This document shows positions 2,644 through 55,549 of a stretch of 64,000 nt of DNA, in pieces. The stretch spans positions 182,304 to 246,303 of the forward strand of contig JBBTWE010000001.1 in the NCBI GenBank assembly GCA_038062955.1, given 5' to 3'. Every line of letters starts with the position of its first letter. The first letter of the stretch is position 1. The stretch comes from Patescibacteria group bacterium. GTDB taxonomy: Bacteria > Patescibacteriota > Minisyncoccia > Phycocordibacterales > BOKC01. Both the position numbers and the translations under genes were made by a program. Below the pieces are notes generated by a model. It was given only the letters and a program-made list of their open reading frames with translations, was not told the origin of the DNA and did no database searches.

Positions 2644-2790
2644 TATAGCACATAATTAAACTTAACAAAAGCAGAAATAGCAAATGCATAGTTTCTTTAT
2701 AAAATTAACGAAAATAAAAAAAGGCACCGTCGTGAGAACGGTGCCAGTTGTGACAACACTTGAGAGGTGGCTGTCTAACCTTCGAGCGAA

Positions 2791-3339
2791 CTATCGCTCG
2801 AGATCGAAGTACTTGGCGGGAGCAAGCGAGATGTACTCGAGACCGAAATCATCGGGATGCTTAACGCCCACCTCCATGTCGTAGCCGTGTCCGATGCTGA
2901 CCACAACGTGCGGCTCGCCTTCCCATTCCACGATGAGCGGGTAGCAGATTTCCTTACCTCGCAGTTGGTCCAAGATCTTCTCTGGTGGAGGAGGAGATCC
3001 GCAACTGGGATCGAATCTGATGACCGGAATCTTGAAGGTTGATTCCAGATCGAGAATGTTCCACCAGAACCGTGAATCGTATTCGGCAGCATCCTCATAC
3101 TCCTTTGCAGACTTCTCGCGAGCGAGCTTCTCGATGAGAGTCCTCGGCACACGCCACGGGCTATCCACAATCACCTGGGCGAGCTTCGTGACGATGTCCT
3201 TGCCCCGCTCGCTGGTGAGGAAGTGAAGCATCTCTTCGAAGCCTCCCAACCTCACGATCTCGTTCACGAGAGCCTGAATGAAGACCATCGCCATGCCGAG
3301 ACCCGACACGAGCGACGACGACGAATTCTTGCTTGCCAT
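2791..3339 (-). CDS. hypothetical protein (GC-rich island A ORFan)
   Basis: 182-aa ORF in a clearly GC-richer block; it has an upstream TTGACT-N16-TACACT promoter-like motif and a downstream hairpin plus T7 terminator at 2714-2746. Confidence 0.55.
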   Translation of the reverse strand: MASKNSSSSLVSGLGMAMVFIQALVNEIVRLGGFEEMLHFLTSERGKDIVTKLAQVIVDSPWRVPRTLIEKLAREKSAKEYEDAAEYDSRFWWNILDLESTFKIPVIRFDPSCGSPPPPEKILDQLRGKEICYPLIVEWEGEPHVVVSIGHGYDMEVGVKHPDDFGLEYISLAPAKYFDLER

Positions 3340-3475
3340 GACGGCTACTACTCCTCTTCAGATCCATGACTTATCCATCCTGTTCACAAAATGCGAACGC
3401 TCGGACTTGCCTAGAATCTTCTGGCTACTAGTGTAACATAAGACAGATAAAAGTCAAGACTAGTTAATCGGGATA

Positions 3476-4450: not shown

Positions 4451-4798
4451 CTACACCATTTCTATCACAGCTATCTTACTTCCATCACTTACTCTCCTTG
4501 GTACCTTGGTAATTCGGAGGTACCCGCCCTTCCTCTCTTTGTATTTTGGACCAATAACTTCCATAAGTTTCTTTGCTCCATCCATGCCGATCTTGCTAAT
4601 TAGAAGTTTTCTTGAAGAAAGTGTTCCAATCTTAGATTGAGTTATGAGTTTCTCTACATATGGTCGTAAGGACTTTGCTTTGGCTTCAGTGGTTTTTATT
4701 CTTTCTTTCAAAACCAAAGAACGAGCGAGTCCTGCAAGCAAGGCTCTTCGCTGGTTTCTTTCCCTATTAAATTTTCTAAGTTTATTTCCGTGTATCAT
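4451..4798 (-). CDS. rplQ: 50S ribosomal protein L17
   Basis: MIHGNKLRKFNRERNQRRALLAGLARSLV...GGYLRITK. Confidence 0.9.
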   Translation of the reverse strand: MIHGNKLRKFNRERNQRRALLAGLARSLVLKERIKTTEAKAKSLRPYVEKLITQSKIGTLSSRKLLISKIGMDGAKKLMEVIGPKYKERKGGYLRITKVPRRVSDGSKIAVIEMV

Positions 4799-4872
4799 AT
4801 TTTAGTTAATTAGGTGTTTAGAGGGATTAGAGGAATTAGGAAATCCTAATCACTCTAAATCTTCTAATTTCT

Positions 4873-5847
4873 CTATTCTACTAGGGTGATGCCGTACTTA
4901 CCCAATGCTTTTTTTATCTCTCCAATTCCCTTGTTTCCCAATCCGTTAATTTCTAGAAGATCGCTTTCTTTTTTAAGAGCTAATCCTCCCAAGGTTCTTA
5001 TGTTTTCTCCAGAAAGGGCATTCATTGTTCGGGTGGAAAGATTTAAAGATTCAATTCTGGTCTTCAAAGCATCATTATCAACTACAGTCTCCTTTTCTTC
5101 TTCCACTTTTTTGCTCTTTTTCTTGTCTTCCACAGCACTTTCTTCTTTTGCCTCCTTTTGGAAACCAACTATAGAATTAAGTTGGTTTATCATTATCTCG
5201 ATAGATTTCTCGAGAGATTCTTTAGGAGTTATTGTTCCATCAGTTTCGATAAAAATTCGAAGTCTGTTGAAGTCCGTTCTATCGCCGACTCGCATATTTT
5301 CAACCTCATAATTTACTCTTCGAATTGGAGCAAATATTGCGTCTAAGGCAATTGTGCCAATATCCACTTTATCTTTTTGAAGCACTTCTTTTGAAACGTA
5401 GCCCAATCCTCTTTCGATGCTCATTTCAATATCAAGGACGGTGTTTTTGCCGGTAACTGTAGCTATCGCTAGATCAGGATTTGTTATCTGTAATTGGCCT
5501 GGGAGCTTTATATCCGAAGCTTTTACTTCTTGAGGACCTTTTACTTTGAGTCTGATTGTTTGAGGTTCGTCAGTGAGTGCCTTTATTCTAATCTTTTTTA
5601 AGTTGAGAATAATTGTTATAACATCTTCTTTTACACCCTCCATTGTTGAAAACTCGTGGTTAACCCCCGCAATTTTGACTGAAGTTATAGCAACACCAGG
5701 CAAAGAAGACAAAATAATCCTTCTTAGTGAATTTCCCAAAGTGTGTCCATATCCAGGATATAGACCATCAATCTCGTAAGATGCTGAAAAACCATCTTCT
5801 GATATAACCTTTGGTTTTGTTGGTAAAACTATGTCGTGATAAATCAT
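4873..5847 (-). CDS. rpoA: DNA-directed RNA polymerase subunit alpha
   Basis: 324 aa with LYPGYGHTLGNSLRRILLSSLPG motif; the C-terminal domain has the helix-hairpin-helix. Confidence 0.95.
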   Translation of the reverse strand: MIYHDIVLPTKPKVISEDGFSASYEIDGLYPGYGHTLGNSLRRIILSSLPGVAITSVKIAGVNHEFSTMEGVKEDVITIILNLKKIRIKALTDEPQTIRLKVKGPQEVKASDIKLPGQLQITNPDLAIATVTGKNTVLDIEMSIERGLGYVSKEVLQKDKVDIGTIALDAIFAPIRRVNYEVENMRVGDRTDFNRLRIFIETDGTITPKESLEKSIEIMINQLNSIVGFQKEAKEESAVEDKKKSKKVEEEKETVVDNDALKTRIESLNLSTRTMNALSGENIRTLGGLALKKESDLLEINGLGNKGIGEIKKALGKYGITLVE

Positions 5848-5877
5848 ATCTATAAATTTATAAAATATTAAAATTTT

Positions 5878-13767: not shown

Positions 13768-13796
13768 TCAATAATAATAACCCCACAATCTATATA

Positions 13797-13845
13797 AAAA
13801 AAGCGCCTCGCGATTCGTTGTTCACGAATTTCGCAAGGCGCCGTT
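13797..13845 (-). terminator. intrinsic terminator of island C, homologous to 43016-43064
   Basis: ggcgccttgcgaaattcgtgaacaacgaatcgcgaggcgc plus T7 on the minus strand; about 80% identical to the terminator of island L gene 3. Confidence 0.65.
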
Positions 13846-13870
13846 GGGCGAGCTGTAGATTTGTTACTAC

Positions 13871-14380
13871 CTACTGCGGTTTGGTGGGAGGCGGAAGGGC
13901 GTGATAAACCGTGAACTGTCGAGGGATTGCTTTGACTTTTGCTTTTTGCCCCTCTATCTCACTCACGAGTTTCCAATTGGCATCGGTCATCTCTGCGTTG
14001 AATACGCTAGCAAGTACATCCTGTTCCTTTTTGATGGCTTCCATCTCATGGGACCAGGAGGAAAGCTGGTTGATCGCCCACTGTGTTTGTGGATTATCAC
14101 CGAAGGAATCCCGCATCGATTTCAGGAAACTCTCGTAGATGAGGATGTCTCTCTGCTTCTTGTAGATTTCTGCAGCGGTATCCTCGAACCACTGGCACCT
14201 CTCGATCATCGCGCGAGGACCAAGTTTCGATGATGTCTCAAACGTAAGTTGGCTAAAGACTATGCATGCAGCCGAGAGACCAAAGATTGCACCTGCCAAC
14301 ATGGCCACAGGTAGTCTCTGTGGCCATTTACCTCTACGATCATCAAGGATCTTTTCCCCATTCAGTTTCGTGGATTCCAT
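13871..14380 (-). CDS. hypothetical membrane-anchored protein (GC-rich island C ORFan)
   Basis: 169 aa with N-terminal TM (LPVAMLAGAIFGLSAACIVF); ribosome-binding site GGAGGAGAAATTGAG-ATG; a palindromic promoter upstream; its terminator is homologous to the one at 43016-43064. Confidence 0.5.
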   Translation of the reverse strand: MESTKLNGEKILDDRRGKWPQRLPVAMLAGAIFGLSAACIVFSQLTFETSSKLGPRAMIERCQWFEDTAAEIYKKQRDILIYESFLKSMRDSFGDNPQTQWAINQLSSWSHEMEAIKKEQDVLASVFNAEMTDANWKLVSEIEGQKAKVKAIPRQFTVYHALPPPTKPQ

Positions 14381-14444
14381 CTCAATTTCTCCTCCAAAAG
14401 AACTGGAACTCTGTAGCGGAGTGCCACAAAGTGTTTATCTGCTT

Positions 14445-19621: not shown

Positions 19622-19788
19622 GATTTCTATTTTAACGTAAAAATAAAATAGGCGCTAGGTATCCCTCCGGGATCATAAAAACATCAGTGAAATAATCTCT
19701 ATTACTTGACAAGACACTCCAATTCTGTAATTGTATATGAGGATAAACCTGCACTTCGTAGGAATCTGTTCTTTAACAAGGGTTCATT

Positions 19789-20256
19789 ATGCTACTCGCA
19801 ACCGATAGAAAGGCAAAGGTACGTCTGAGAAGGCTCGCAAGGCTCGACTTCACCCAAATCAAGGCCAAACTTTGTTCCGAGATGCCTGGGTGGAATGCGG
19901 AGAAGGCAGAACTCATCGAGAAGTGGTATCGCCGCTTCTTGCAGGTCATTCTCTTCCACCCGCAAGCAAAGATCGTTCCCAACACACTGGTGGATGACTT
20001 CTGGCACGCTCACATCCTCGACACCAAGAAGTACATGCTGGACTGCCAGAACGTCTTCGGGCACTTCGTCCACCACGAACCGTCCTACGGCGAAGAGAAG
20101 TTGGAGGGAGGCTACGATGAGACCAACGCCCTCTTCCGTGAGACGTTTGGTGAAGATCAGACAGTTCTCGAACCTAGTCGGGCTGGTAAAAAGTGCAGGA
20201 AGAAGTGCAGAAGGAAGTGTGGAAGCATAGACGGAAACTGTGCTAGCGGGTACTGA
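19789..20256 (+). CDS. hypothetical protein with DDFWHAHILDT...Y..DC...GHFVHHEP motif and a Cys/Lys-rich C-terminal tail (possibly GRDP/DUF1399-like)
   Basis: GC-rich 155-aa ORF (island E); a plus-strand hairpin plus T8 terminator lies at 20268-20302; the antisense ORF 19792-20274 was rejected. Confidence 0.55.
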   Translation: MLLATDRKAKVRLRRLARLDFTQIKAKLCSEMPGWNAEKAELIEKWYRRFLQVILFHPQAKIVPNTLVDDFWHAHILDTKKYMLDCQNVFGHFVHHEPSYGEEKLEGGYDETNALFRETFGEDQTVLEPSRAGKKCRKKCRRKCGSIDGNCASGY

Positions 20257-20313
20257 AGCGGGACAATTCCCCAAACCATAACAAGTTTGGGGGATTATTT
20301 TTTTTAAATTTTT

Positions 20314-20523: not shown

Positions 20524-20614
20524 ATAAATAGTCTGTAATGTAGAATAGAAAGGTTAAATGGTATTAAACCCTTTGATCGTCTACACGCTCGCTAACCGGA
20601 ATAAAGCAAAACCC

Positions 20615-20658
20615 CCGAACCGAAAGGAACGGGGGTTTTGCTTTTTATTTTGACTTTA
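20615..20658. terminator. bidirectional intrinsic terminator
   Basis: A-run, aaaacccccgaaccgaaaggaacgggggtttt, T-run. Confidence 0.75.
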
Positions 20659-20678
20659 TAACTTTTAACCTTATAACT

Positions 20679-21965: not shown

Positions 21966-24527
21966 CTATAACACAATATTCAAAATTTTGCCTTTAACGT
22001 AAATTATTCTTTTTACCTCCTTTCCTTCTATCCATTTTTTAACACTAGGAAGGTCAAGGATCTTCTCTTTTATATCTTTTTCTGACATCTCGCTTTCCAT
22101 CTCAAAAATATCTCTGGTTTTACCATTTATTTGAATAGCTAATTTAGAACTTTGTTTTATTTTTTGAGAATCAAACATTGGCCAAGGAGAAAGATAAATT
22201 GATTTCTTATTTCCTAAATTTGCCCACAATTCTTCTGTGATATGGGGCGCAAATGGCGAGATGAGTTGCAAAACTGTTTCGTATATTTCTTTTGAAATTT
22301 TTTCTTGATTTTCTAGAGCGCCCGCAAGAATCATGAGAGAAGAAATTGCGGTATTAAAATTAAAATTTTCTATATCTTCACCAACTTTTTTTATTGTCTG
22401 GTGAAGAAGGCTCTGTAAATCAGAATTTATGACCTCTAATTTTTTGTTTGTGACTTTTTCTTGGAGTCGCCAAATTTTTTCCAAGAATCTTCTGGAGCCA
22501 ATCATGTTTTGGGTATCCCAAGCAATCGCATTTTCAAATGGACCCATAAACATTTCATAAACGCGGAGCGTATCGGCTCCCCACGTCGCTACAATCTCAT
22601 CCGGATTTATAACATTTCCAAAACGCTTGCTCATTTTTCGGCCGTCAGGGGCCATGATGAGACCGACGTTCTTAAATCTCATAAACGGTTCTTTGGTTGC
22701 AAAAATCTTCATGTCGTACAAAAACTTATGCCAAAATCTAGCGTAAATTAAATGCCGTGTTGCATGTTCAGCTCCACCAATATACATATCAACTGGTAAC
22801 CACGATTCGAAAGCGCTTTTAAATTGCTCCAATCCTTTTTCTGTTTTTGCTTTTAGGCCGTTTACAGGTGTCGACAATAAACCTGTCGACCTAGTAGTTT
22901 TCGATTTCATTGCATACGCCGCGTAATACCAAGAAGACCCCGCCCATTGAGGCATGGTATTGGTTTCTCTTTGCGCTTTTCCACCGCATTTCGGACATTT
23001 TATGTTCACGAAGCTCGCAATATTCGCAAGCGGAGATTCTCCGGTTCCGGATGGTTCGTATGATTTTACTTTCGGCAATTTAACCGGTAAATCTTCGTCA
23101 GGAATCGCAATCCATCCTGGATTCAATAATTCTCCAGTATTAAAATTCTTGTGGTATTCAATCCTCCCCTCCTGCGTCTCGGCTCTTTTTTTACACTGTA
23201 CACAAAAAACAAGTGGGATTGGTTCCCCCCAATATCTTTGCCTTGAAAAAACCCAGTCTCGCAGTTTATAAGTGGTTTTGCGTTTTGCTAATTTATTTTT
23301 TTCTAAATATTTAATAATTTCATTCCGGATGTTACCAGCCACTTTCCCATCAAATTCTTTCGGGTTTTTAAGAACTCCACTCTTCATGTCGGTAAAACAA
23401 ATTTCCAGATTTCTGACTTTTTCTGCGAGCACAGAATCTGCTGGAAACAGAACAGGTTTAAGCGGAATTTTGTATTTCTTGGCAAATTTAAAATCTCTTT
23501 CATCATGAGCAGAGCACTTTACTATTCCGGTTCCATAATCAGCCAGGGCATAGCTTGCAACCCATATTGGTAGTTCCCCATTTTCCACTGGGTCGATTGT
23601 GTATCGTCCGGTAAATATTCCTTCCACTTCTTTTTGCTCTTTAAAACCTGCTTCACTTCTATTTTTTACAAGCCTGGCTGAAAAATCCAAAATTTCTTTT
23701 TTATTTGGAATTCCTTCTAAAAGTTTTGGCAAAAGTGGATGATCGGGCGCGATAACCACAAAAGTATCGGCCGCAAATGCTTCAAAGTGTGCTGAGAAAG
23801 TTTCAATTTTAATATCAGTTCCCTTAATCGGTGACGTAAAAATCATTCCCTCACTTTTTCCTATCCAGTTTCTTTGTGATTCTTTTATTGAATCTGACCA
23901 ATTTAAAAGATTTAAATCTTCGAGAAGTCTTTCAGCATAATCAGTAATTTTAAGCACCCACTGGCGCATGGGTTTTTTCTCGATAACGGATCCACATCGT
24001 TCACATTTTCCATCTTCTAAATCTTCGTTTGCAAGACCAGTTTTGCATGACGGACACCAATTGATTGGCTCAAATGATTCGTAAGCTAATCCCCTTTTAA
24101 ACATCTCAAGGAAGATGAGTTGTGTCCATTTGTAATATTCTGGATCAGTTGTATTTATTTCTCTGTTCCAATCATAATTAAAACCCAAAACCTCGAGCTG
24201 TTTTTTAAAAGTATTTACATTTTTCTTAACTGCAATTTCTGGGTGAATTTTATTTTTTATAGCAAAATTTTCGGCTGGAAGTCCAAAAGCATCCCAACCC
24301 ATGGGGTGAAGTATGGAAAATCCTTTAGCTTTTTTGTACCTGGAGTAAACGTCCGTTGCGATATAACCTTTTGGGTGTCCTACATGAAGCCCGTCGCCGG
24401 ATGGATAAGGGAACATATCAAGGACATAACATTTTTCTTTTGGAGAGGCGTCAGTTTTGAAAATCTTTTTCTTGTCCCAAACTTTCTTCCATTTCGATTC
24501 TATTTTTTTGTGGTTGTACTCTTTCAT
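21966..24527 (-). CDS. leuS: leucine--tRNA ligase
   Basis: MFPYPSGDGLHVGHPKGY (HIGH region) and KMSKRFGN (KMSKS); the start is the ATG at 24525-24527 (MKEYNHKKIESKWKK); the 14 extra codons in the ORF track come from the MITE. Confidence 0.95.
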   Translation of the reverse strand: MKEYNHKKIESKWKKVWDKKKIFKTDASPKEKCYVLDMFPYPSGDGLHVGHPKGYIATDVYSRYKKAKGFSILHPMGWDAFGLPAENFAIKNKIHPEIAVKKNVNTFKKQLEVLGFNYDWNREINTTDPEYYKWTQLIFLEMFKRGLAYESFEPINWCPSCKTGLANEDLEDGKCERCGSVIEKKPMRQWVLKITDYAERLLEDLNLLNWSDSIKESQRNWIGKSEGMIFTSPIKGTDIKIETFSAHFEAFAADTFVVIAPDHPLLPKLLEGIPNKKEILDFSARLVKNRSEAGFKEQKEVEGIFTGRYTIDPVENGELPIWVASYALADYGTGIVKCSAHDERDFKFAKKYKIPLKPVLFPADSVLAEKVRNLEICFTDMKSGVLKNPKEFDGKVAGNIRNEIIKYLEKNKLAKRKTTYKLRDWVFSRQRYWGEPIPLVFCVQCKKRAETQEGRIEYHKNFNTGELLNPGWIAIPDEDLPVKLPKVKSYEPSGTGESPLANIASFVNIKCPKCGGKAQRETNTMPQWAGSSWYYAAYAMKSKTTRSTGLLSTPVNGLKAKTEKGLEQFKSAFESWLPVDMYIGGAEHATRHLIYARFWHKFLYDMKIFATKEPFMRFKNVGLIMAPDGRKMSKRFGNVINPDEIVATWGADTLRVYEMFMGPFENAIAWDTQNMIGSRRFLEKIWRLQEKVTNKKLEVINSDLQSLLHQTIKKVGEDIENFNFNTAISSLMILAGALENQEKISKEIYETVLQLISPFAPHITEELWANLGNKKSIYLSPWPMFDSQKIKQSSKLAIQINGKTRDIFEMESEMSEKDIKEKILDLPSVKKWIEGKEVKRIIYVKGKILNIVL

Positions 24528-24653
24528 CCCGTAGTAGAAAATGGCATAGTTGCTTCGCAACTTGTTCATTTTTTTAAAATATATTTTATATAATTAATGA
24601 CCGTTTGTTATAATTTAAGTTCGTAATTTTACAATGCCATTTTTCACTACGGG
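24528..24653. mobile_element. MITE-like element copy 3 (126 bp; target-site duplication tTTCAT/aTTCAT at 24522-24527 and 24654-24659)
   Basis: terminal inverted repeat cccgtagtagaaaatggcat / atgccatttttcactacggg; the left target-site duplication is the ATG of leuS; internal TTGTAA-N16-TATAAC outward promoter-like motif facing leuS. Confidence 0.75.
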
Positions 24654-24786
24654 ATTCATACCCTCTCTCCATTCTCCCGTATTTTCTCCAATATTTCAAG
24701 AGATAATACAAAAATTGGCAAAAAGAAAGGGCGGCCATTGCTGGTCGCCCCTGGTGGAAGTTTGTTCTTGAGCCTTCCACTTTCGT

Positions 24787-30878: not shown

Positions 30879-31083
30879 ATATCAATAATAACATATTAGT
30901 GGATTCACGATGTAATATCTATGATTCAAGAAAAAGAAGCGTCACAAATTTTTCATGACTACGCCATGAAAAATCTTGCGACGTAATTTTTGTAGTGCAA
31001 AAATTAAAAGCGGGAACCCACGAATGTGGATTCCCGCTGGTTCTGACAGACGGATCTCTACTACTTCTCTCGAGGGCCTACGA

Positions 31084-31356
31084 TCAGGCCTGCTGGAGGA
31101 GTTCCAGCCGATCGAGTGGACGTTGGTTGAGCAACCCTTGGGCAACCTTCCTGATCGGTTGTCTCCTCTTCAGAGCATCCTTGATCCGACTCAACACTCT
31201 CGCGTCGAGGTGGTTCGCTCCACCGCTCTCGAGAATCATCTTCACGAGGCCCAACTCGGGATTGATTTCGCGAAGCTTCGGGGGCGGCTGTTCCTGCATC
31301 AGAGGGCGCATTGACCCTCTGCTTTCTCTGGGACGTGGACGATGACCGTGATTCAT
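31084..31356 (-). CDS. hypothetical protein (GC-rich island H, 90 aa)
   Basis: ribosome-binding site AGGAGAaacgcagg-ATG; strong intrinsic terminator gcgggaatccacattcgtgggttcccgc plus T-run on the minus strand (about 31005-31040). Confidence 0.55.
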   Translation of the reverse strand: MNHGHRPRPRESRGSMRPLMQEQPPPKLREINPELGLVKMILESGGANHLDARVLSRIKDALKRRQPIRKVAQGLLNQRPLDRLELLQQA

Positions 31357-31570
31357 CCTGCGTTTCTCCTACGAGGTTGAGAACTTTCTCTTGGCGTTGT
31401 TGCCTCGAGATCTGCGGTCAATCTTCTCATGGGGAGTTTTGTCTGTCAAAAAAGTTACGCACTTCTCCTTGACATAAAAATCCTAATATATTACACTGGT
31501 AGTCAGAAGAGTTGGCAAGGAGGCCAATTCTCGGTCATTTGTTTCCATGCGTTAGTTTGGAGAAACGGTC

Positions 31571-31795
31571 ATGAGAAAGCAACCGACAACAGAGGTGGAA
31601 ACCAGTCAGCGACCATTCGGGCGCGTACTGGGGGTTCGGATGGCGATGGATCGACTTCCTGAAGAGCCAGCTAGGCTGACTACCAGTTCCCCTGGTGGTC
31701 AGATCGCTCTGGTTCGCTCCACGAAGGTCAGGCGATGCGAAGAACAGGAGATCTCGCTCGCTCTTTGGCACGGAGGCATCACCTCTCGGTCGTGA
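31571..31795 (+). CDS. hypothetical protein (GC-rich island H, 74 aa)
   Basis: ribosome-binding site GGAGAaacggtc-ATG; TTGACA...TACACT promoter; terminator ccccagcatctacggatgctgggg plus T-run at about 31805-31845. Confidence 0.55.
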   Translation: MRKQPTTEVETSQRPFGRVLGVRMAMDRLPEEPARLTTSSPGGQIALVRSTKVRRCEEQEISLALWHGGITSRS

Positions 31796-31843
31796 CGTCT
31801 CGAACCCCAGCATCTACGGATGCTGGGGTTCTTATTTTATATA

Positions 31844-33196
31844 TTAATTTGGGAATTTACCTTTTTCGTATTTGATAAGTGGCAGTTTTGTCCAAATTTC
31901 GTGGATTTGATCAACAATGACCCATGAAGCCTCTACTTCTTCTTCCGAGACAAAAAGATCTTCATTTCCCTTAAAAACTTCCAGGAAAAGTTTTTCGTAC
32001 GATTCACTCGAGTGTCCTTGATACGTTTTTCCCTTGAGATTTATTACTTCCTTTTTATCGGTCTTATCAGTAAAAATTGCTTCTGGTTCCGGCTGGATTC
32101 TAAAGAGAATTTCTTTGATATCTGTTAAATGTTTTGATTCTAATTTGAAAGTTTCTGGTTTTTTAAAAATGACTTTCACTCCAACTTCATTTTTTGACAA
32201 TCCCTTCCCTCCAGCAACAGTGATTTTTACCCCTTCCCATTTTTTGTCTCCAAGTGCTACTGGAAATTTAAAAAAAGTTTCAGTTTCCGAATCGTTCTCT
32301 ACTCCTTTTTCTTTAAGATAACCGATATATTGGCCACGAACTATATCTTTAATGGCAACAGCCTCTAATTTGAGTGCGTTTTTTAAAATATCCGCTCGTC
32401 TTTTTTGAACATTTTTTTCCGCTCCGTTTTCTTGAAGCATATGAGAAAGGACAATCAGTGCGTGATTTTGTCCGACATCTCGTAGAGCGCCAAGTGAATC
32501 ATAAAATTCACCTCGACCCTCAATATCTTTCGTCTCAAAAAGAGTTATATCAATTGATTCAATATGTTCATTATTCCAAATTTTTCTTAAGTTTTCTTTT
32601 TCTGAAAGTGTTTTTGCCGCATGTAAAGTTTCTTTGGTGAGATAGTGGTCAATTTCGTAAATTTGATCCCTTGTTGCAATTTTATTTATCAAAGAATGAA
32701 TTTCTTTAGCTGTTTTGAGATCATGACCAATTGGTTTTTCGATAATAATTTTAGTTTTTCCCGTGCCGTCTGTGCATGAGAGGGTGAGTCCTGTTTTGTG
32801 CATATTTTGGAGAACTAATTCGTAAAATGCTGGCGAGACCGCAAGATGAAACAATTTATCAGAACAATTTCCAAATTTTTCGTCGATTTTTTGAAGCAAA
32901 TTTATTAGAGATTCGTAAGAGGTTGGATCATCAAACTTCCCTTCTGAATACTCAACTAAATTCAAAAAGTCTGTAATTTTTTCATCCCTGTCTTTAAAAT
33001 TTGGAACATTTTCAATGAGAAACTGTCTAAAATCAGAACTTTTAAAATTTCTTCGCGAAAAGCCCACTACTTTCATATTTTTAGGCAGTTTATCTTTTTT
33101 ATACAAACCAAAAAGTGCTGGGAAAAGTTTTTTTCGTGCAAGGTCTCCTGTCGCGCCTAAAATTATGATAGTAGTCGCCTTTTTTGAGTTATCCAT
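31844..33196 (-). CDS. zwf: glucose-6-phosphate 1-dehydrogenase
   Basis: IIILGATGDLARKKLFPALFGLY NAD(P)-binding motif; G6PD C-terminal domain. Confidence 0.9.
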   Translation of the reverse strand: MDNSKKATTIIILGATGDLARKKLFPALFGLYKKDKLPKNMKVVGFSRRNFKSSDFRQFLIENVPNFKDRDEKITDFLNLVEYSEGKFDDPTSYESLINLLQKIDEKFGNCSDKLFHLAVSPAFYELVLQNMHKTGLTLSCTDGTGKTKIIIEKPIGHDLKTAKEIHSLINKIATRDQIYEIDHYLTKETLHAAKTLSEKENLRKIWNNEHIESIDITLFETKDIEGRGEFYDSLGALRDVGQNHALIVLSHMLQENGAEKNVQKRRADILKNALKLEAVAIKDIVRGQYIGYLKEKGVENDSETETFFKFPVALGDKKWEGVKITVAGGKGLSKNEVGVKVIFKKPETFKLESKHLTDIKEILFRIQPEPEAIFTDKTDKKEVINLKGKTYQGHSSESYEKLFLEVFKGNEDLFVSEEEVEASWVIVDQIHEIWTKLPLIKYEKGKFPN

Positions 33197-34937: not shown

Positions 34938-35054
34938 TCCACCTACCGTGGCGGGTGGTTTTCGATTTCGTAAACTCAATAACGAAAACCCTTTCGATCC
35001 CGCTACGGAGTGAAGCAGTTCACTCCTCCGGTTCCTAACTCACTGCGTTCGTTG

Positions 35055-35127
35055 TGGACCATAGCGGGATCGAACCGCTCACCTCGCACATGCCATGCGC
35101 GCGCTCTACCAAATGAGCTAATGGCCC
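35055..35127 (-). tRNA. tRNA-Ala (anticodon GGC)
   Basis: revcomp is GGGCCATTAGCTCATTTGGTAGAGCGCGCGCATGGCATGTGCGAGGTGAGCGGTTCGATCCCGCTATGGTCCA: cloverleaf with G3:U70, anticodon loop AUGGCAU, T-loop GGTTCGATCC; CCA is not encoded. Confidence 0.9.
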
Positions 35128-39275: not shown

Positions 39276-40775
39276 TTAATCTATGTTTGTTACTTTAGAA
39301 TCAAAACTGCCATCTAACACTTTTATATTCACTAAATCATCTTTTTTTATTTGCGATACATTGCGCACAATTCTATTTCCTGCCTTCACAATACTATACC
39401 CTAAATTTAATTGCCTATCAGGATCGTGCGTTTGAAGCAATTTTTGTGAAGTTTCAAGCCTTAAAATGATTTTTTTAGTGCTTTCTTCAAAGAGTCGAAC
39501 CCCAGTGCTTAGAAATGAAGATAAGTTTTTGTTTATTTCCGTAAATCGAAGACGCATTGAAACAAAAGCTTGTTTTAAGGCACTTTGTGCCCGATCAAAC
39601 CTTTGGAAAATCGCATTAAAACTTTCTTTCATAATTTCCAGTGCTCGTGTTACGGCATCTTTATTGCTTAACAGACCGCTTTCAAAAATAGAGAAAATCT
39701 TTTTTTGCAACATTTCAATCTTAAAGACTATCTTTTCCCACGATTCGTTCAAGGCTTTGGCGGCCGCGGTTGGTGTTGAAACCATTCTATCAGAAACTAA
39801 TGCGAAAAGTGGTACATCTTTCTCATGACCAATACCCGCGAGAACCGGCACAGGAAAATCCACAATTTCTCGAATAAGAGTTTCGTTATTAAAAGGTAAA
39901 AGTGATTCCATAGATCCGCCTCCACGCATAATTACAAGCACGTCAATATCCTTTTTTTTGCGAAAAGTGCGGAGAGATCCTAGAAGCTGTTTGATTGCTA
40001 GTTGCCCCTCGACCCTCGAATCAATAAGAGAAATTTTGAAACCGAACTTTCCAATATTGGCTAGAAAATCACCTATGGCCGCTCCTTCTTTGGAAGTAAT
40101 TATGCCGATCCTTTGTGGAAAATTTGGTAAAGCTCTTTTTCGTTCAATTTTGAATAAACCCTCACTTTCCAATTTCTTTTTAAGCTCGTCGTACGCTTTT
40201 TTAAGTGCGCCTTCTCCCACAAGTTCAACAGTTTCAGTCCTAAAAGTAAATTTACCTGTTGGTTTATGCACTTCAGGGAATCCAGATACAACTATTTCCA
40301 TTCCCTCGAGTAAATTAACCCCAGACATTTGATAGGAATTCTGCCACATGAAACAGCTTAAAATACTCTTGTCGATTTTGTCTTTCAAGGAAAAAAATAA
40401 ATAAGTTCCTCGAATATCTAAACTACTAATTTCTCCCTGAATTCTGGCGTTTTGTTTTTCCAGACTTTTATTGATTAAAGTTAAATATGTGCCAACCGAA
40501 TACAGAATACTTTGATCGGTTTCATTTTTTATATTGGCTTCTTTCTCATCAAAATCTAAATTTCCATTTACCAAAGATAATATTGAGGCTCCATACTTTT
40601 CAAACTTTTTTTCTTTAATTCCTTTTATACCGATAAGTTCTTCTTTTGATTTTGGCCCAACTTCTAAAATCATCCTCATCGTTTCATTAGAAAAGACCCG
40701 ATAGGCTTCAACACCCTCTTTTTTGGCTGTTTGATTCCGCCAAGCCAGTAATTTTCGAAATAAAGTGTGATCCAT
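39276..40775 (-). CDS. xseA: exodeoxyribonuclease VII large subunit with an N-terminal HRDC-like domain
   Basis: LFRKLLAWRNQTAKKEGVEAYRVFSNETMRMILEVGPKSKEELIGIKGIKEKKFEKYG (HRDC-like), then OB-fold and XseA catalytic region (IGIITSKEGAAIGDF...MRGGGS...); the start is ATGGAT at 40773-40775, which is the MITE target-site duplication. Confidence 0.8.
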   Translation of the reverse strand: MDHTLFRKLLAWRNQTAKKEGVEAYRVFSNETMRMILEVGPKSKEELIGIKGIKEKKFEKYGASILSLVNGNLDFDEKEANIKNETDQSILYSVGTYLTLINKSLEKQNARIQGEISSLDIRGTYLFFSLKDKIDKSILSCFMWQNSYQMSGVNLLEGMEIVVSGFPEVHKPTGKFTFRTETVELVGEGALKKAYDELKKKLESEGLFKIERKRALPNFPQRIGIITSKEGAAIGDFLANIGKFGFKISLIDSRVEGQLAIKQLLGSLRTFRKKKDIDVLVIMRGGGSMESLLPFNNETLIREIVDFPVPVLAGIGHEKDVPLFALVSDRMVSTPTAAAKALNESWEKIVFKIEMLQKKIFSIFESGLLSNKDAVTRALEIMKESFNAIFQRFDRAQSALKQAFVSMRLRFTEINKNLSSFLSTGVRLFEESTKKIILRLETSQKLLQTHDPDRQLNLGYSIVKAGNRIVRNVSQIKKDDLVNIKVLDGSFDSKVTNID

Positions 40776-40917
40776 CCCGTTAGTGAAAAATGGCATTATT
40801 TGCTCGCCGTTTTTATTTTAATGAGTAATATCATCTATGATACAAAATTTAACACACCCCCAAAATTATTTCTCGCAAATAAGAGCTATGCCATTTTCTA
40901 CTACGGGATCCATGAAG
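40776..40917. mobile_element. MITE-like element copy 4 (142 bp; exact 6-bp target-site duplication ATCCAT at 40770-40775 and 40918-40923)
   Basis: terminal inverted repeat cccgttagtgaaaaatggcat / atgccattttctactacggg; the left target-site duplication is the ATG of xseA. Confidence 0.75.
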
Positions 40918-40956
40918 CTTTTGACTTTAGGGTCAAAAAGACAATCTTACAATTAT

Positions 40957-41012
40957 ATCATAAAGATAAAAACCCTTGTTTTTAGGCCTAGTTATGGAAT
41001 TAGGAGGATTTT
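40957..41012. repeat. about 55-bp direct repeat (second copy 41538-41596, about 85% identical), each followed by a TTGACA promoter
   Basis: acaattatatcataaagataaaaa(c/g)c(c/t)ttgtttttag... aligned by eye. Confidence 0.65.
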
Positions 41013-41026
41013 ATAGAAAATTCGCT

Positions 41027-41055
41027 TGACAATAAACTAGATGTGTGTATAATAT
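41027..41055 (+). promoter_or_regulatory. near-consensus sigma70-type promoter TTGACA-N16-TATAAT with TGn
   Basis: cgcTTGACAataaactagatgtgTGtgTATAATatac. Confidence 0.6.
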
Positions 41056-41064
41056 ACAAGGATA

Positions 41065-41478
41065 CGTTCGGCGCCAAATCCTTAAATGGCGAACACATGT
41101 CACTACGGGGTACAGCGATATGTGAGGCCAGCGTAGTATGTTTTCTCTCCCCATCCGACATACCACAAACGGTAACGGAAGAAGAAAGAGAAATAAGTTC
41201 CAGGCCGTGTCTCCATCCTGGAACGAAGCAAAAAAGAGACAACAAAAAAGACAAATTCTGCTATGATCCCGGGAAAGTTCCCGTGCGATCGAAGGTTCTA
41301 GACGGTGAGAATCTGTTCGCGATCCCGGGTTAAATCCTGGGCGAACATAAGGCCAAGATGCCACAACCGAGCACCCTGAGGATTGGTCTCCTCGCGTCCC
41401 ATAGGCCGCGTACTGGGTGATGATACTTTGACCACGGGCCGGAGCAACGATTCAGTCGTTTGCTTCGGCCCTTTTTTA
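41065..41478 (+). ncRNA. promoter/terminator-bounded GC-rich transcription unit (about 410 nt): structured ncRNA candidate, or a 79-aa Cys-containing small protein without a ribosome-binding site
   Basis: near-consensus TTGACA-N16(TGtG)-TATAAT at 41027-41055; multiple perfect hairpins (gttccagg...cctggaac, gttcgc...gcgaac); terminator gggccgg...cggccc plus T6 at 41436-41478; no RNase P / tmRNA / SRP signatures. Confidence 0.4.
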
Positions 41479-41665
41479 TTGCAAATTTTTAGGTATTTGT
41501 AGATGTGTGATGCGAATAAAAAGCAAAAAAGCGAATATAACAATTATATCATAAAGATAAAAAGCTTTGTTTTTAGACGTTTTTGTGGAATTATGCTAAT
41601 TTTACTTGACATTTTCCTGTATTATGATATTATCTAAATAGAACATCCAACCCACAGGAGGACTT

Positions 41666-41941
41666 ATGGAACCATACATGATGAAAAGGGCAGATGTAGA
41701 GGTCATGCTCATCTACATCAGAAGTGGCCTAATCCATCAGCATCAAGAAACAAACCGTAGTGACTTGATTGCAATTTTCGAAGCTGCACTTGCCGTTGCC
41801 GATCCGAAGCACTCGGGTAAGTACGTTTTTGTCAATTTCGGAGAGGGAGACCGTTACCATGACTTGTGGCATCAATACGGTGACCTGATCCGGGAGATCT
41901 GCTTCAGATACGAAACCATGCGGCAAGGTGGAAGACCCTAG
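41666..41941 (+). CDS. hypothetical protein (GC-rich island K2, 91 aa)
   Basis: TTGACA promoter (duplicated module) plus perfect ribosome-binding site AGGAGGacttATG. Confidence 0.5.
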   Translation: MEPYMMKRADVEVMLIYIRSGLIHQHQETNRSDLIAIFEAALAVADPKHSGKYVFVNFGEGDRYHDLWHQYGDLIREICFRYETMRQGGRP

Positions 41942-42026
41942 GCTGCTCTGTCACAACCGTCACCAACAAAGAGAACTGTCTCTGCGTTCGGGGCGGTTTT
42001 CTTTTATACAAAATTCTTCTAATTCC

Positions 42027-42590
42027 TTAGAAAAGATCTCGGAGAAGGTATCCGACACTAAAAGAAATTACTGCGGCGAGGCCACCAATAAGAAAGCTTT
42101 CGATAGCGGAATGAATCTTCCCCTTTTTTGTTATCACTGCTTTTATAAATCCAATCACTAAAAATGCAACACCTGTCAAAATGGCCGAGATAACAAATTT
42201 ATTTTGATCAATATAAAAATTAAGCGGAGCAATTACAAAAGAAAATAACGGAATGAATCCAACTATTACAAAAGAGAAGAATGTGGCGATAGCCGTTTTT
42301 ATCGGTCTTTTATGATTTATATTTCTACCCCCGTCTAAGTCTCTCTGTGATTTGGTTGAAAGATAGTTTGAGGAAGCCATCGAAAAACCGTCAGCCAATA
42401 AGTTAGCAAAACCTAAGATTAAAATTACTTTGGCGCTCAAAACAGCTCCGACTGCTCCAGCAATAATAGCGAATGTCGTTACTGCTCCGTCGGTTGCTCC
42501 ATAGACAAATTCAGCCAAATATTTCTTTGACGTTGGTTCCGAGCAATCTTTAGGGTTGTAGGATGTCTTCTGTTCGTCCATTGATTCCAA
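42027..42590 (-). CDS. VIT1/CCC1-family (DUF125) membrane protein
   Basis: FVYGATDGAVTTFAIIAG... motif, 5 TM. Confidence 0.7.
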   Translation of the reverse strand: MESMDEQKTSYNPKDCSEPTSKKYLAEFVYGATDGAVTTFAIIAGAVGAVLSAKVILILGFANLLADGFSMASSNYLSTKSQRDLDGGRNINHKRPIKTAIATFFSFVIVGFIPLFSFVIAPLNFYIDQNKFVISAILTGVAFLVIGFIKAVITKKGKIHSAIESFLIGGLAAVISFSVGYLLRDLF

Positions 42591-42990: not shown

Positions 42991-43015
42991 GTATTATATC
43001 AAAATTTTGTATAAA

Positions 43016-43064
43016 AAAAGCGCCTCGCGTTTAAATCGTTTTCACGAATTTCCGCAAGGCACTT
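43016..43064 (-). terminator. intrinsic terminator of island L, homologous to 13797-13845
   Basis: gtgccttgcggaaattcgtgaaaacgatttaaacgcgaggcgc plus T7 on the minus strand. Confidence 0.65.
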
Positions 43065-43083
43065 TGACGTACGACTACCGCAC

Positions 43084-43518
43084 TCAATCTGGGAGAATGG
43101 ATGCCGGAATCGGGATGGCCACGCAACGGATTTGGCGGTCTGGAATGGTTACCAGTTGCCAGTTCTCGCGCAGGCCGATCTGTTCTGTGTTGACAATCTC
43201 AGGGAATGTATGCCGCACACTGTGCCAGAAACAAGAGTGGGCAAGGTCGAATCGATTTCTGATCACCCCAAGTGCTCTTGTGGCATCGTTTGTCTGCCTC
43301 TCATCCAGATCGAGAAGACTCCCCAACTTCGAGATCCGGTGCTTGAGCTCACCGCGTTCGTTTTCCGCGATTCTCATGACCGTGTAGAGACGCTTGAGAT
43401 CGTCCGGCAACGTGCCGATGACTTTCTCGCCCTCCTCCACCTTCCCCGTCGGACATTGAATATCCGCGAGAGGAACGCCCTCTGCCCGACTCAAGATTTC
43501 CTTCAGTAGCACTGTCAT
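43084..43518 (-). CDS. hypothetical protein (GC-rich island L gene 3, 144 aa)
   Basis: own TTGACA-N17-TAATAT promoter and ribosome-binding site AAGGAGGGcaaaATG; its terminator is homologous to the island C terminator. Confidence 0.5.
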   Translation of the reverse strand: MTVLLKEILSRAEGVPLADIQCPTGKVEEGEKVIGTLPDDLKRLYTVMRIAENERGELKHRISKLGSLLDLDERQTNDATRALGVIRNRFDLAHSCFWHSVRHTFPEIVNTEQIGLRENWQLVTIPDRQIRCVAIPIPASILPD

Positions 43519-43615
43519 TTTGCCCTCCTTGTGGGCTTGGAACTATTTCCGAGGAAGATATTAGTATACCTTTAGAATAATGTCAAATAGTGAGAATTTT
43601 AATAAAAAAACGGCC

Positions 43616-43912
43616 TCAACGCGTTTGCGCCAAGACCGTGAAAACTGCCACAAGAACAAGCAAGAAGAGCAAATCGAGAATAGCACGAGTTCTGTGCCGA
43701 ATCATCATCGGTTTTTGCGGAAGACGTTCTAGGACATCAGCGGGAACCTTCATGATGCAACCTAGTTCATCTCTGTGCAAGATCGGCACACATCCAAAGG
43801 GAACTGCGTCGGCTGGAAATGCGACCACCCTTGCTAGGCGATCTCGATATCTTACGATATCTCCACACTTGAATCTTCCTGCCCACACGGTGTTGTATGT
43901 TCTGTGAGCCAT
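43616..43912 (-). CDS. hypothetical protein with C-terminal TM (island L gene 2, 98 aa)
   Basis: GC-rich ORF, translationally adjacent to gene 1 (3-nt spacer). Confidence 0.45.
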   Translation of the reverse strand: MAHRTYNTVWAGRFKCGDIVRYRDRLARVVAFPADAVPFGCVPILHRDELGCIMKVPADVLERLPQKPMMIRHRTRAILDLLFLLVLVAVFTVLAQTR

Positions 43913-43914
43913 TC

Positions 43915-44112
43915 TTACCCCTCCTGTTGTTCGTGATCTGATGCTGGTCTATTCCTTCTCAACCTGCCTTCAGCAAGCCTTCGTTCGTGTTCTTCTGTTG
44001 TAACACAGAGGCATTCGCCATCCTCGCATTGTTCACGATGCGTATCTTGAATGCATCTGGTTAGACCATCAAGCTGTGCCTTTGAGAGAAGGCCGTTATT
44101 GTTCATGACCAC
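43915..44112 (-). CDS. hypothetical Cys-rich small protein (island L gene 1, 65 aa)
   Basis: C-x(9)-C-x(5)-C-x-C; perfect ribosome-binding site AAGGAGGTGgtcATG. Confidence 0.45.
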   Translation of the reverse strand: MVMNNNGLLSKAQLDGLTRCIQDTHREQCEDGECLCVTTEEHERRLAEGRLRRNRPASDHEQQEG

Positions 44113-44216
44113 CTCCTTTTGTGACGTGTATGTTCTAGGACGATAACATTATGCCATCGTCTCATCCGTTTTGATAGTAGTATATGTAATATAAAAAGTC
44201 TAGAGAAAATTATTTT

Positions 44217-44290
44217 TGGTGGACCTAGCGAGAATCGAACTCGCGCCTCTACAATGCGAATGTAGCATTTTACCACTGAACTATAGGCCC
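44217..44290 (-). tRNA. tRNA-Ala (anticodon CGC), CCA encoded
   Basis: revcomp is GGGCCTATAGTTCAGTGGTAAAATGCTACATTCGCATTGTAGAGGCGCGAGTTCGATTCTCGCTAGGTCCACCA; G3:U70; anticodon loop UUCGCAU. Confidence 0.85.
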
Positions 44291-53224: not shown

Positions 53225-53286
53225 TCTGTATGTTATTTATATACCAAAATATAACGAGAATTAATGACTACTTGTAAGTAAGTTTG

Positions 53287-53359
53287 TGGACCCTACCGGG
53301 ATCGAACCGGTCGCCTCCACATTGCAAATGTGGCGCTCTACCAGATGAGCTAAGGGCCC
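53287..53359 (-). tRNA. tRNA-Ala (anticodon UGC)
   Basis: revcomp is GGGCCCTTAGCTCATCTGGTAGAGCGCCACATTTGCAATGTGGAGGCGACCGGTTCGATCCCGGTAGGGTCCA; G3:U70; anticodon loop UUUGCAA. Confidence 0.9.
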
Positions 53360-54512: not shown

Positions 54513-55460
54513 ATGTCTATATCAGATTCGGACACATCGTCCGAAAGTAATCCGCGAAATTCCGCGGGCAGTTCTTTCAAAAAAGAGGGTCTCGTGAATA
54601 CGGAAACAAGAAAGATTGGTCTTGCCTGCTTCATCGGTGGTTTCCTCGGTTGTATCGTGGCGCTCATCTGTACACCGGCCTTCTGGTGGCTCGGTCTCAT
54701 TGCTGGGTTTGCGGGTGGCTACGTGAGCTACGAGTTCCGTTCGGTGCTTCAGGCGATTCCCAAGGCGTTTTTGCAGGTGCAGAAGGAATTCAGTCTCGAT
54801 TTCGTGAGAGCTTGTTTTCAGGGAACAAAAAAATGGTTTGCCAAGCCTCATCCGATTGTTTACTTCGGGCTGTGTTCAGGACTCTTGTGGACCATCATTG
54901 AGGTACTGTTTGATGTTAGTCCTCCAAAGAGATTGGATGGCCAATTACCCCAAATAGACGATTTCGTTGCTCTCTATCTCATCACTTTCCTTGGGTCTGG
55001 ATTCTGTTCCGGGCTTATTGGTGTTACTGTCGTGTTGATAGGAGCTCGTGATGAGATTGGTTTCGTGCCAGACGATTTTTTTGGTGGGTATAGAGAAGCT
55101 CTCAACCACGCCACTGTCGGAGTCGGTCGAGTTCTGAAGTTCGTCTTCTGGACAGCCAGCGTGAAGATCGTTCTGTGGACCATACCGAAGTGGGTATTTC
55201 TAGTGATCTTTGTCTTGGGAGCATGGTGCTGGGAACTCTTCAAGATCATCCACTCGGACAAGCGTCTGCTCTGTGGAGTAGACAGCGCAATTGGTGTGGC
55301 AACAGGCTACATCTTGGCCTTGGGGCAATCCGCTTCATTGGTTGAGTCCTTGTTCTTCTCCACTTATGCCGGACTCATTGGAGCGGTACTCGGGATTCTC
55401 AACTGGGAGCTCGTTTCCAAGCGATGGCTCAAGGTACCCGTGAAGGTAAGAGCGGATTAG
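54513..55460 (+). CDS. hypothetical polytopic membrane protein (GC-rich island N, 315 aa)
   Basis: 8 or more predicted TM segments; TTGAC promoter-like boxes at 54465-54500; hairpin plus T6 terminator at 55468-55515. Confidence 0.5.
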   Translation: MSISDSDTSSESNPRNSAGSSFKKEGLVNTETRKIGLACFIGGFLGCIVALICTPAFWWLGLIAGFAGGYVSYEFRSVLQAIPKAFLQVQKEFSLDFVRACFQGTKKWFAKPHPIVYFGLCSGLLWTIIEVLFDVSPPKRLDGQLPQIDDFVALYLITFLGSGFCSGLIGVTVVLIGARDEIGFVPDDFFGGYREALNHATVGVGRVLKFVFWTASVKIVLWTIPKWVFLVIFVLGAWCWELFKIIHSDKRLLCGVDSAIGVATGYILALGQSASLVESLFFSTYAGLIGAVLGILNWELVSKRWLKVPVKVRAD

Positions 55461-55549
55461 TATCGTCACATCGGCGGTCTTGTAGACAGAAATGTCTCGA
55501 CCGCCGATTTTTTATTATACAGATATAGGAATAGGAGTTTTTAAACAAT

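Follow-up and report, generated by a model that had tools for sequence, protein, structure and literature searches.

A probable structured RNA gene and an orphan protein gene behind paralogous upstream elements at the xseA/VIT1 site of a groundwater Patescibacteria genome

Orphan structured RNAs and the probable RNA unit at the xseA/VIT1 site

Orphan structured non-coding RNA (ncRNA) candidates have been collected in the GC-IGR/DIMPL surveys from long GC-rich intergenic regions of AT-rich bacterial genomes (PMC6429828, PMC8723152, PMC11109978). A locus of this kind was analyzed here in a 64-kb stretch of DNA (contig JBBTWE010000001.1; the whole stretch is called the window) from the genome of a Parcubacteria-like member of the Patescibacteria, assembled from Hainich groundwater. 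It lies between xseA, which encodes the large subunit of exodeoxyribonuclease VII, and a VIT1-family transporter gene, both on the minus strand, and it consists of two units: unit 1, a GC-rich unit of ~419 nt on the plus strand (41060-41478), and unit 2, a gene for a 91-aa orphan protein (ORFan). Similar to the GC-IGR/DIMPL candidates, unit 1 stands out by its high GC content between the genes of an AT-rich genome; it comes with a promoter and a terminator of its own, has multiple predicted hairpins and no conserved open reading frame (ORF), and is narrowly distributed. It differs from them in matching none of the curated families, including those now in Rfam 15, and its sequences are too few for a covariation-supported model. 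We favor, as the probable reading, that unit 1 is a stand-alone and strongly promoted gene for a structured ncRNA of no known family, shared with few close Patescibacteria relatives.

RNase P RNA and transfer-messenger RNA (tmRNA), which are universal in bacteria and 350-400 nt long, resemble unit 1 in size, GC-richness, strong promoter and stand-alone gene. Nevertheless, unit 1 lacks the P4, CR-I and CR-V elements of the former and the tRNA-like domain and tag ORF of the latter, and it is dispensable in one relative (L023). With the 6S/Ms1-type RNAs, which bind RNA polymerase, it has in common that these are stand-alone, strongly expressed structured RNAs with little sequence conservation between lineages; but the predicted fold of unit 1 is not a rod with a central bubble, and the RNA would have twice the length of 6S RNA and is missing in a close relative.

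Patescibacteria (also known as CPR) have tiny genomes, and to our knowledge almost no ncRNAs have been studied experimentally in them. If the favored reading is true, the RNA would be among few candidate lineage-specific RNAs in this group, and its apparent pairing with an orphan protein, in evolution as well as in regulation, would make a concrete two-gene system. The reach is limited to three close lineages, the RNA being dispensable in a fourth, and we regard it as a well-documented candidate rather than a field-changing one.

Unit 1 contains 50.8% GC against 38.5% for the window, and its conserved core (see below) reaches 56%. Promoter P1, TTGACA-16-TATAAT (41026-41053, plus strand), scores 12/12, with a predicted transcription start near 41060. 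It is the sole perfect TTGACA-N16-18-TATAAT within the 64 kb, where 0.04 would be expected. At the other end stands an intrinsic terminator (41436-41478, plus strand), made of a 16-bp stem with one bulge (41436-41471, dG −27.1 kcal/mol) and the run UUUUUU (41472-41477). An earlier reading of the window, made from the sequence only, had described a GC-rich unit closed by an intrinsic terminator, and both features are borne out. Transcription from P1 to this terminator would yield the ~419-nt RNA, and the counterpart in the nearest other species would be ~283 nt long.

The window sequence is also found on European Nucleotide Archive contigs (277 kb) and on the contig of an NCBI metagenome-assembled genome (~0.70 Mb); the seven copies retrieved are all 100% identical across 40700-42200 and add no comparative information. 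Relatives were sought by synteny, using xseA and VIT1 look-ups, which gave at least L022 (partial), L021, L023/L027, L030, L032, L033, L039 and L040, the last four having unrelated flanks. The comparison was made with L008 (xseA 92% identical), L023/L027 (83%), L022 (60%), L021 (58%) and L030 (VIT1 70% identical).

The VIT1-xseA gap of L008 holds, in the same orientation, the upstream element and promoter (84% identical, with P1 itself unchanged), an RNA unit of ~283 nt and a terminator. A 146-nt stretch at the 3′ side of unit 1, the core (41292-41437, plus strand), is 87% (MAFFT) to 90% identical to L008 and includes uninterrupted matches of 28-29 and 22 nt. The neutral background between the same two genomes is given by a dS of 0.8-1.2 in housekeeping genes and by 54-61% identity (~57%) at the four-fold sites of neighboring genes. 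The 5′ domain of unit 1 (41060-41291, plus strand), with multiple hairpins that include a polypyrimidine/polypurine hairpin around 41143-41195, is replaced in L008 by an unrelated segment of ~100 nt (local alignment z = 0.6). The partial relative L022, a contig of 1957 nt, carries upstream of xseA a GC-rich transcript unit with TTGACA-17-TATACT at the place equivalent to P1. Its 5′ part aligns with the window 5′ domain at z = 7.2, a score reached by none of 500 shuffles, and the contig stops where the core would start. In the favored reading the functional part of the RNA is the 3′ core, and the 5′ hairpin domain is modular and replaceable.

In L023/L027 the VIT1-xseA gap is reduced to 58 nt, in which a relic of the RNA terminator is left (L023 1215-1262). 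No second copy of the RNA was found in the 8-9 kb read around the site in each of the two. The U-tail of the relic is oriented for the missing RNA, evidence that these lineages descend from an ancestor with the RNA gene and that the gene was deleted in the L023/L027 lineage. In L021 the site is occupied, in unchanged orientation, by another, different GC-rich unit (5636-5868, minus strand; 52% GC, ~220 nt), which has a TTGACA promoter and a strong terminator and is predicted to fold into a long rod (z −4.1). This unit has no Rfam match, and no similarity to the window RNA was found by alignment or covariance model. We take the xseA/VIT1 site to be a variable hotspot for accessory units. Further evidence for this comes from L030, where the equivalent intergenic site (4560-5240) holds a 117-aa ORFan on the plus strand and, on the minus strand, a short TTGACA-driven unit with its own terminator.

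The predicted fold of the core comprises stacked hairpins and a three-way junction. Hairpin 1 pairs GGUUCU with AGAAUC around the invariant loop AGACGGUG. Hairpin 2 (GUUCGY/GCGAAC) is stacked on hairpin 1, and its tip differs between the species. Hairpin 3, of 3 bp (GGC/GCC), is followed by the invariant single-stranded linker ACAACCGAGCA. The junction is closed by CACCC/GGGUG and encloses GAGGR/UCCUC (GAGGA in the window) together with a variable hairpin, for which one species has CGCG...CGCG and the other UGC-GUAA-GCA. The core ends in AUGRUAYUUUGACC, after which comes the terminator; that of L008 has a different sequence and an equivalent fold (−23.3 kcal/mol). Hairpin tips and terminator diverge in sequence between the species with their helices kept. 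In the two full sequences, 97% of the cells of the proposed core structure pair, against 40-57% with the partners slid; of its 33 pairs, 26 are invariant and a single one is changed on both sides. RNAalifold, applied to the 5′ domain of the window and L022, gave 31 pairs, with 6 changed on both sides. The minimum free energy (MFE) z-score of unit 1 is −3.5, and that of its L008 homologue is −3.3. We regard the fold as plausible, not proven.

Most likely, the RNA would act in trans through the core with its invariant loops and linkers, as a protein-binding scaffold or a decoy, and not by base-pairing with mRNA. Within the window, targets of the conserved single-stranded core segments are no more numerous than expected by chance.

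Unit 1 was compared with the known RNA classes by model searches. Rfam 15 gave no match at gathering threshold, so that the known class for which the sequence-only reading had left room was not found. At E<=10 the isolated unit 1 region produced merely chance-level, sub-threshold fragments, far below gathering, and the same cutoff gave nothing for the unit in L008, L021, L022 and L023. RNase P RNA (RF00010/RF00011) was rejected on the grounds of no match at gathering threshold or at E<=10 and the lack of P4, CR-I (GAGGAAAGUCC) and CR-V (ACAGAAnnCGGCUUA). In the case of tmRNA, ARAGORN reported none in the window, just three tRNA-Ala genes; with no Rfam tmRNA match, tRNA-like domain or tag ORF in unit 1, this candidate was also dropped. 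A possible 'T-arm' at 41324-41341 has a loop of 6 nt and lacks conservation in L008. Likewise, signal recognition particle (SRP) RNA was dismissed for want of an Rfam SRP match at E<=10. The absence of RNase P, tmRNA and SRP features, formerly judged by eye, agrees with the model searches. In L021 the same Rfam scan detected, away from this site, a normal class A RNase P RNA (118 bits) together with the 3′ end of a tmRNA, which means that the clade has the standard versions and that unit 1 is neither. A riboswitch or other cis-regulatory leader was rejected because the next gene has a promoter of its own and is separated from unit 1 by a strong terminator; downstream of the L008 homologue there is only the convergent 3′ end of VIT1.

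Searches for further family members gave little. No paralogue of unit 1 was found within the window, and literature searches found no published description of such an RNA. The region 40930-42010 had no blastn match in phage and plasmid collections, and a scan of viral contigs for three motifs of 17-23 nt returned chance matches only. The core covariance model R1 recovers only its two source sequences, even with filters off on L021 and L022. The exact pattern AGACGGTGAGAA-N35-65-GCCACAACCGAG, in hindsight too strict, found in genome and metagenome contigs two chance matches (L018, L019) and the known relative (L020).

The shared upstream element and the 91-aa ORFan

Both units are preceded by a copy of the same element on the plus strand. 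Copy 1 (40935-41013), which is AT-rich with 27% GC, and copy 2 (41526-41604) were obtained by repeat search as a two-copy family of 79 nt with 81% identity. An exact block of 24 nt, shared by the copies (40949-40972 and 41540-41563), occurs nowhere else in the window, with 0 expected. A duplicated AT-rich segment of ~55 bp had been claimed earlier; the duplication is real and has two copies, and the repeat is longer than was claimed. The claim that a TTGACA promoter follows each copy holds for both, since P1 (12/12) is matched before unit 2 by P2 (TTGACA-16-TATTAT, 41606-41633, plus strand), which scores 11/12 and has an upstream TG (extended −10). L008 has a conserved P2 in front of its 90-aa ORFan orthologue.

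Alignment of four copies (two units in two species) revealed that ~40 nt of the element, CAATTATATCATAAAGRTAAAAASCYTTGTTTTTAGRC, are nearly invariant, and that more conserved blocks lie 3′ of this stretch as far as the −35 hexamer. The spacer and the −10 are unit-specific, yet conserved between species. In the window, where it lies in the two copies, and in L008 alike, the 15-mer CAATTATATCATAAA is present exactly twice per genome region. Such conservation in four copies, far above that of neutral DNA, argues that the element is functional. The ~40-nt block contains the palindrome TAAAAAC-N4-GTTTTTA, and copy 2 lies 11 bp, about one helical turn, nearer its −35 hexamer than copy 1. Most likely, we infer, the element is a putative binding site for one DNA-binding factor that would co-regulate both units. 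Read on the minus strand, the ~40-nt block is TGATATAAT, an extended −10; in copy 1 it is directed towards xseA, and the element may also carry the divergent promoter of this gene.

In the sequence-only reading the copies had been taken for direct repeats that flank the block. An insertion bounded by direct repeats (a mobile element or target duplication) was rejected, as a distance of 3.5 kb separates the units in L008, where each of them has a single copy, on its upstream side. This arrangement points to a regulatory module shared upstream of the promoters and not to an insertion flank. It is known from mobile promoters that promoter regions can be duplicated or propagated within one genome. 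The element resembles these as an upstream-plus-−35 module of ~80-120 bp before two unrelated genes. It differs from them in its copy number, two in 64 kb of window sequence and two in the L008 sequence read (~12 kb), in having neither terminal repeats nor target duplications, in a spacer and −10 that differ between the paralogues, and in a conserved part that lies upstream of the −35.

Unit 2 (41656-41941, plus strand) starts with the perfect ribosome-binding site noted before, AGGAGG (41656-41661), 4 nt ahead of the ATG of the 91-aa ORF (41666-41941). The predicted protein has a pI of 6.2 and a mass of 10.7 kDa. Among 5.8 billion proteins it has a single other cluster (P0002, 80% aa identity), which originates from Rifle aquifer and other groundwater samples. 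The orthologue in L008 has 90 aa, and the dN/dS of 0.20 between the window ORF and its orthologue indicates purifying selection. These data mark the ORF as a genuine protein gene, found in two lineages only. No match was obtained in Pfam, NCBIfam, PHROG or PADLOC, nor any fold match. The coding sequence is followed by a 3′ untranslated region (3′ UTR) with a branched terminator (41942-42005, plus strand; stem 41955-41998, then UUUUCUUUU; dG −19.5 kcal/mol), and the region 41942-42026 is 91-93% identical to L008 versus 82-85% for the coding sequence. A CACAACCG-N-CACC motif common to the core and this 3′ UTR was dropped because the spacing differs.

In L008 the ORFan cassette (the 90-aa gene with its upstream-element copy, promoter and 3′ UTR) is located 3.5 kb from the RNA unit, flanked by genes for PMSR and for a cation ATPase. 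At its 3′ end there is a relic of the VIT1 C-terminus (L008 6357-6415, ISFTVGFLL), from which it follows that the cassette once adjoined VIT1, the arrangement seen in the window, and that it was moved or copied afterwards. The PMSR-ATPase gap of L023/L027 is empty, as is their xseA/VIT1 site.

These observations raise the question of whether the RNA and the 91-aa protein form one accessory module, an RNA-protein complex or an RNA-antitoxin/protein-toxin pair, co-regulated through the upstream element. The units are adjacent in the window, and the VIT1 relic of L008 shows an older adjacency; the nearly invariant upstream element is common to both; and they co-occur, as both are present in the window and L008 and both are missing in L023/L027. 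Nevertheless, the co-occurrence is based on three lineages only, and the 3.5 kb between the units in L008 does not favor joint function. The ORFan has a separate promoter, and its product matches no family or fold of toxins, defence proteins or RNA-binding proteins. The sole notable complementarity between RNA and ORFan, 12/13 nt (41096-41108 versus 41755-41767), is not conserved in L008, and whole-molecule duplex energies of the two are no better than those of shuffles, a comparison that is uninformative.

The layout of RNA gene, terminator and small protein gene, accessory and patchy in distribution, recalls the type III toxin-antitoxin systems (ToxIN-like). These differ from the locus in the tandem-repeat array of their RNA, which unit 1 does not have; moreover, the ORFan has a promoter of its own and no ToxN-like or PADLOC match, and the two genes are unlinked in L008. 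Tandem Repeats Finder (TRF) gave in unit 1 only a trivial A-rich 12-mer of 1.9 copies, and a repeat search a single 24-nt pair with 75% identity. A type III system was rejected on the lack of tandem repeats, of any match to ToxN/AbiQ/CptN/TenpN-type proteins and of co-transcription. All in all, a joint module appears unlikely, and so does a more ambitious version of it, namely that RNA and protein are a new two-gene accessory module of Patescibacteria, switched by one regulator via the shared 40-nt operator, and that the xseA/VIT1 gap is a hotspot where related lineages have different structured RNAs, GC-rich and strongly promoted, one type in the window, L008 and L022 and another in L021. The reading that we prefer has instead two independent accessory transcription units with a paralogous conserved promoter-upstream element, through which a single factor would most likely co-regulate them.

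Coding potential and other readings of unit 1

The ORF of unit 1 that starts with ATG (41097-41333) encodes 78 aa with 4 Cys, which leaves the earlier description intact except for its length of 79 aa. A 96-aa version would need a GTG start upstream of the predicted transcription start. Neither version is conserved: the region is replaced in L008, and in L022 there is no start inside the transcript and the frame and stop are different. An ORF conserved as a protein, to which the sequence-only reading had pointed as the other outcome, was therefore not found. The core differs between the window and L008 by indels of 1, 1, 2 and 6 nt, not a pattern of multiples of three. No ORF is conserved in unit 1 and its homologues on either strand, and the antisense ORFs have just 12 codons in common, between two compensating 1-nt indels. 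With no conserved ORF and such non-triplet indels, non-coding RNA is the best reading of unit 1. The previous suggestion of a novel structured ncRNA thus fares well as regards novelty (no Rfam family), the non-conserved ORF and a positional homologue with a conserved core, while its structured character is, from our models, a prediction.

Unit 1 could also be what is left of a GC-rich ORFan cassette that was acquired horizontally and is now in decay, still transcribed and without a function of its own. Several GC-rich islands of ORFans without Pfam match, with their own promoters and terminators, are indeed present in the window (for example 30952-31876 and 43000-44127), the unit is dispensable in L023, its 5′ half has a quick turnover, and one gene caller placed the 96-aa gene in it (L006). 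A pseudogene, however, would be expected to drift to ~57% identity, in contrast with the 87-90% and the exact runs of 28-29 nt in the core. Hairpin tips and terminator diverge while pairing is kept, the promoter is still a perfect consensus in two species, and no partial conserved ORF exists in any frame. We consider such a remnant quite improbable.

In another reading unit 1 is an mRNA for one or more very short peptides, with candidates starting MPQPST at 41352 (preceded by AAGG) and MFSLPIR at 41138. The start context AAGGC(C/G)AAGAUG and the first six codons of the former are identical in the window and L008, and the latter is common to the window and L022. In both cases, however, the frame shifts after six or seven codons, by a 1-nt indel in the core or a 10-nt indel in the 5′ hairpin, and sequence and length then differ completely (20 versus 16 aa, 42 versus 19 aa). 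Moreover, the shared codons fall within nucleotide blocks that are equally conserved outside any ORF, and neither start has a good Shine-Dalgarno sequence. Translation of these peptides as the purpose of unit 1 seems very improbable.

Equally remote is a very divergent housekeeping RNA missed by the Rfam models in this phylum, for example a 6S-like RNA that binds RNA polymerase, for the strong constitutive-type promoter, the GC-rich, abundant-looking unit and a possible positional analogue in the rod-like unit of L021 (same site and orientation, z −4.1) are set against MFE and centroid folds that in two species are multi-hairpin and not a rod with central bubble, no Rfam 6S match, only chance-level Rfam matches at E<=10, under the laxest filters, in the window and none in L008, an RNA missing in L023/L027 with no second copy in the 8-9 kb read around each site, and an L021 unit without similarity to it by alignment or covariance model.

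Some results weigh against unit 1 as a structured ncRNA gene. Its minus strand folds equally well (z −3.9 versus −3.5 for the plus strand), and the strand cannot be told from the z-score alone. The one core pair that changes on both sides was matched by shuffles in 252 of 500 trials, and with only two or three homologues (two full, one partial) covariation has no statistical power. The RNA is dispensable, as its absence from L023/L027 demonstrates, and the family is very narrow, given that the exact-pattern scans yielded chance matches and the known relative only. In addition, the dS of the ORFan cassette is 0.58, below that of the housekeeping genes, and part of the conservation of the accessory units could reflect more recent shared ancestry and not selection.

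Neighboring genes and other features of the window

The true start of xseA is the ATG at 40775, and the stop of the VIT1-family gene is at 42027. Between the xseA start and copy 1 of the upstream element there is an element resembling a miniature inverted-repeat transposable element (MITE) at 40776-40908, with the inverted termini ATCCCGT(T)AGTGAAAAATGGCAT. Its termini are inverted over 22-24 nt (ATCCCGTAGTGAAAAATGGCAT), and the inverted repeat was located at 40781-40796/40888-40903. The sequence-only reading had placed the block next to the fourth copy of a MITE; the MITE-like element is there, and a second window copy was found at 24520-24662, the interiors of the two being divergent. It belongs to neither unit 1 nor unit 2 and is missing at the corresponding position in L008. 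Adjoining the xseA start, it supplies an in-frame ATG that gives a false 7-aa extension (506 aa versus the 499 aa annotated by NCBI).

The genome seems to be dotted with GC-rich accessory cassettes. The island at 30952-31876 (51% GC) holds two divergent small ORFans with no Pfam match. The minus-strand one (31084-31356; terminator at 31038-31009) has 90 aa; that on the plus strand (31571-31795) has 74 aa and comes with TTGACA-17-TACACT (31469-31497) and a terminator of 13 bp (31802-31831). Other islands of 48-53% GC, with ORFs that have no Pfam match, are found at 2701-3450, 13769-14428, 19744-20300, 43000-44127 and 54520-55533. That at 43000-44127 contains three ORFans (144, 98 and 65 aa, minus strand) beside the tRNA-Ala(CGC) gene at 44217-44290, and its content varies among relatives.

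Rfam also reported ohsC_RNA at 20603-20669 on the minus strand (55 bits versus a gathering threshold of 50). ohsC is an enterobacterial type I antitoxin sRNA, and the match is probably a false positive, since the score comes mostly from a G+C-rich terminator hairpin, in a Patescibacteria genome. The three tRNA-Ala genes, all on the minus strand, lie within 18 kb, at 35054-35127 (GGC), 44217-44290 (CGC) and 53286-53359 (UGC); two of the three were reported by the Rfam tRNA model at gathering threshold.

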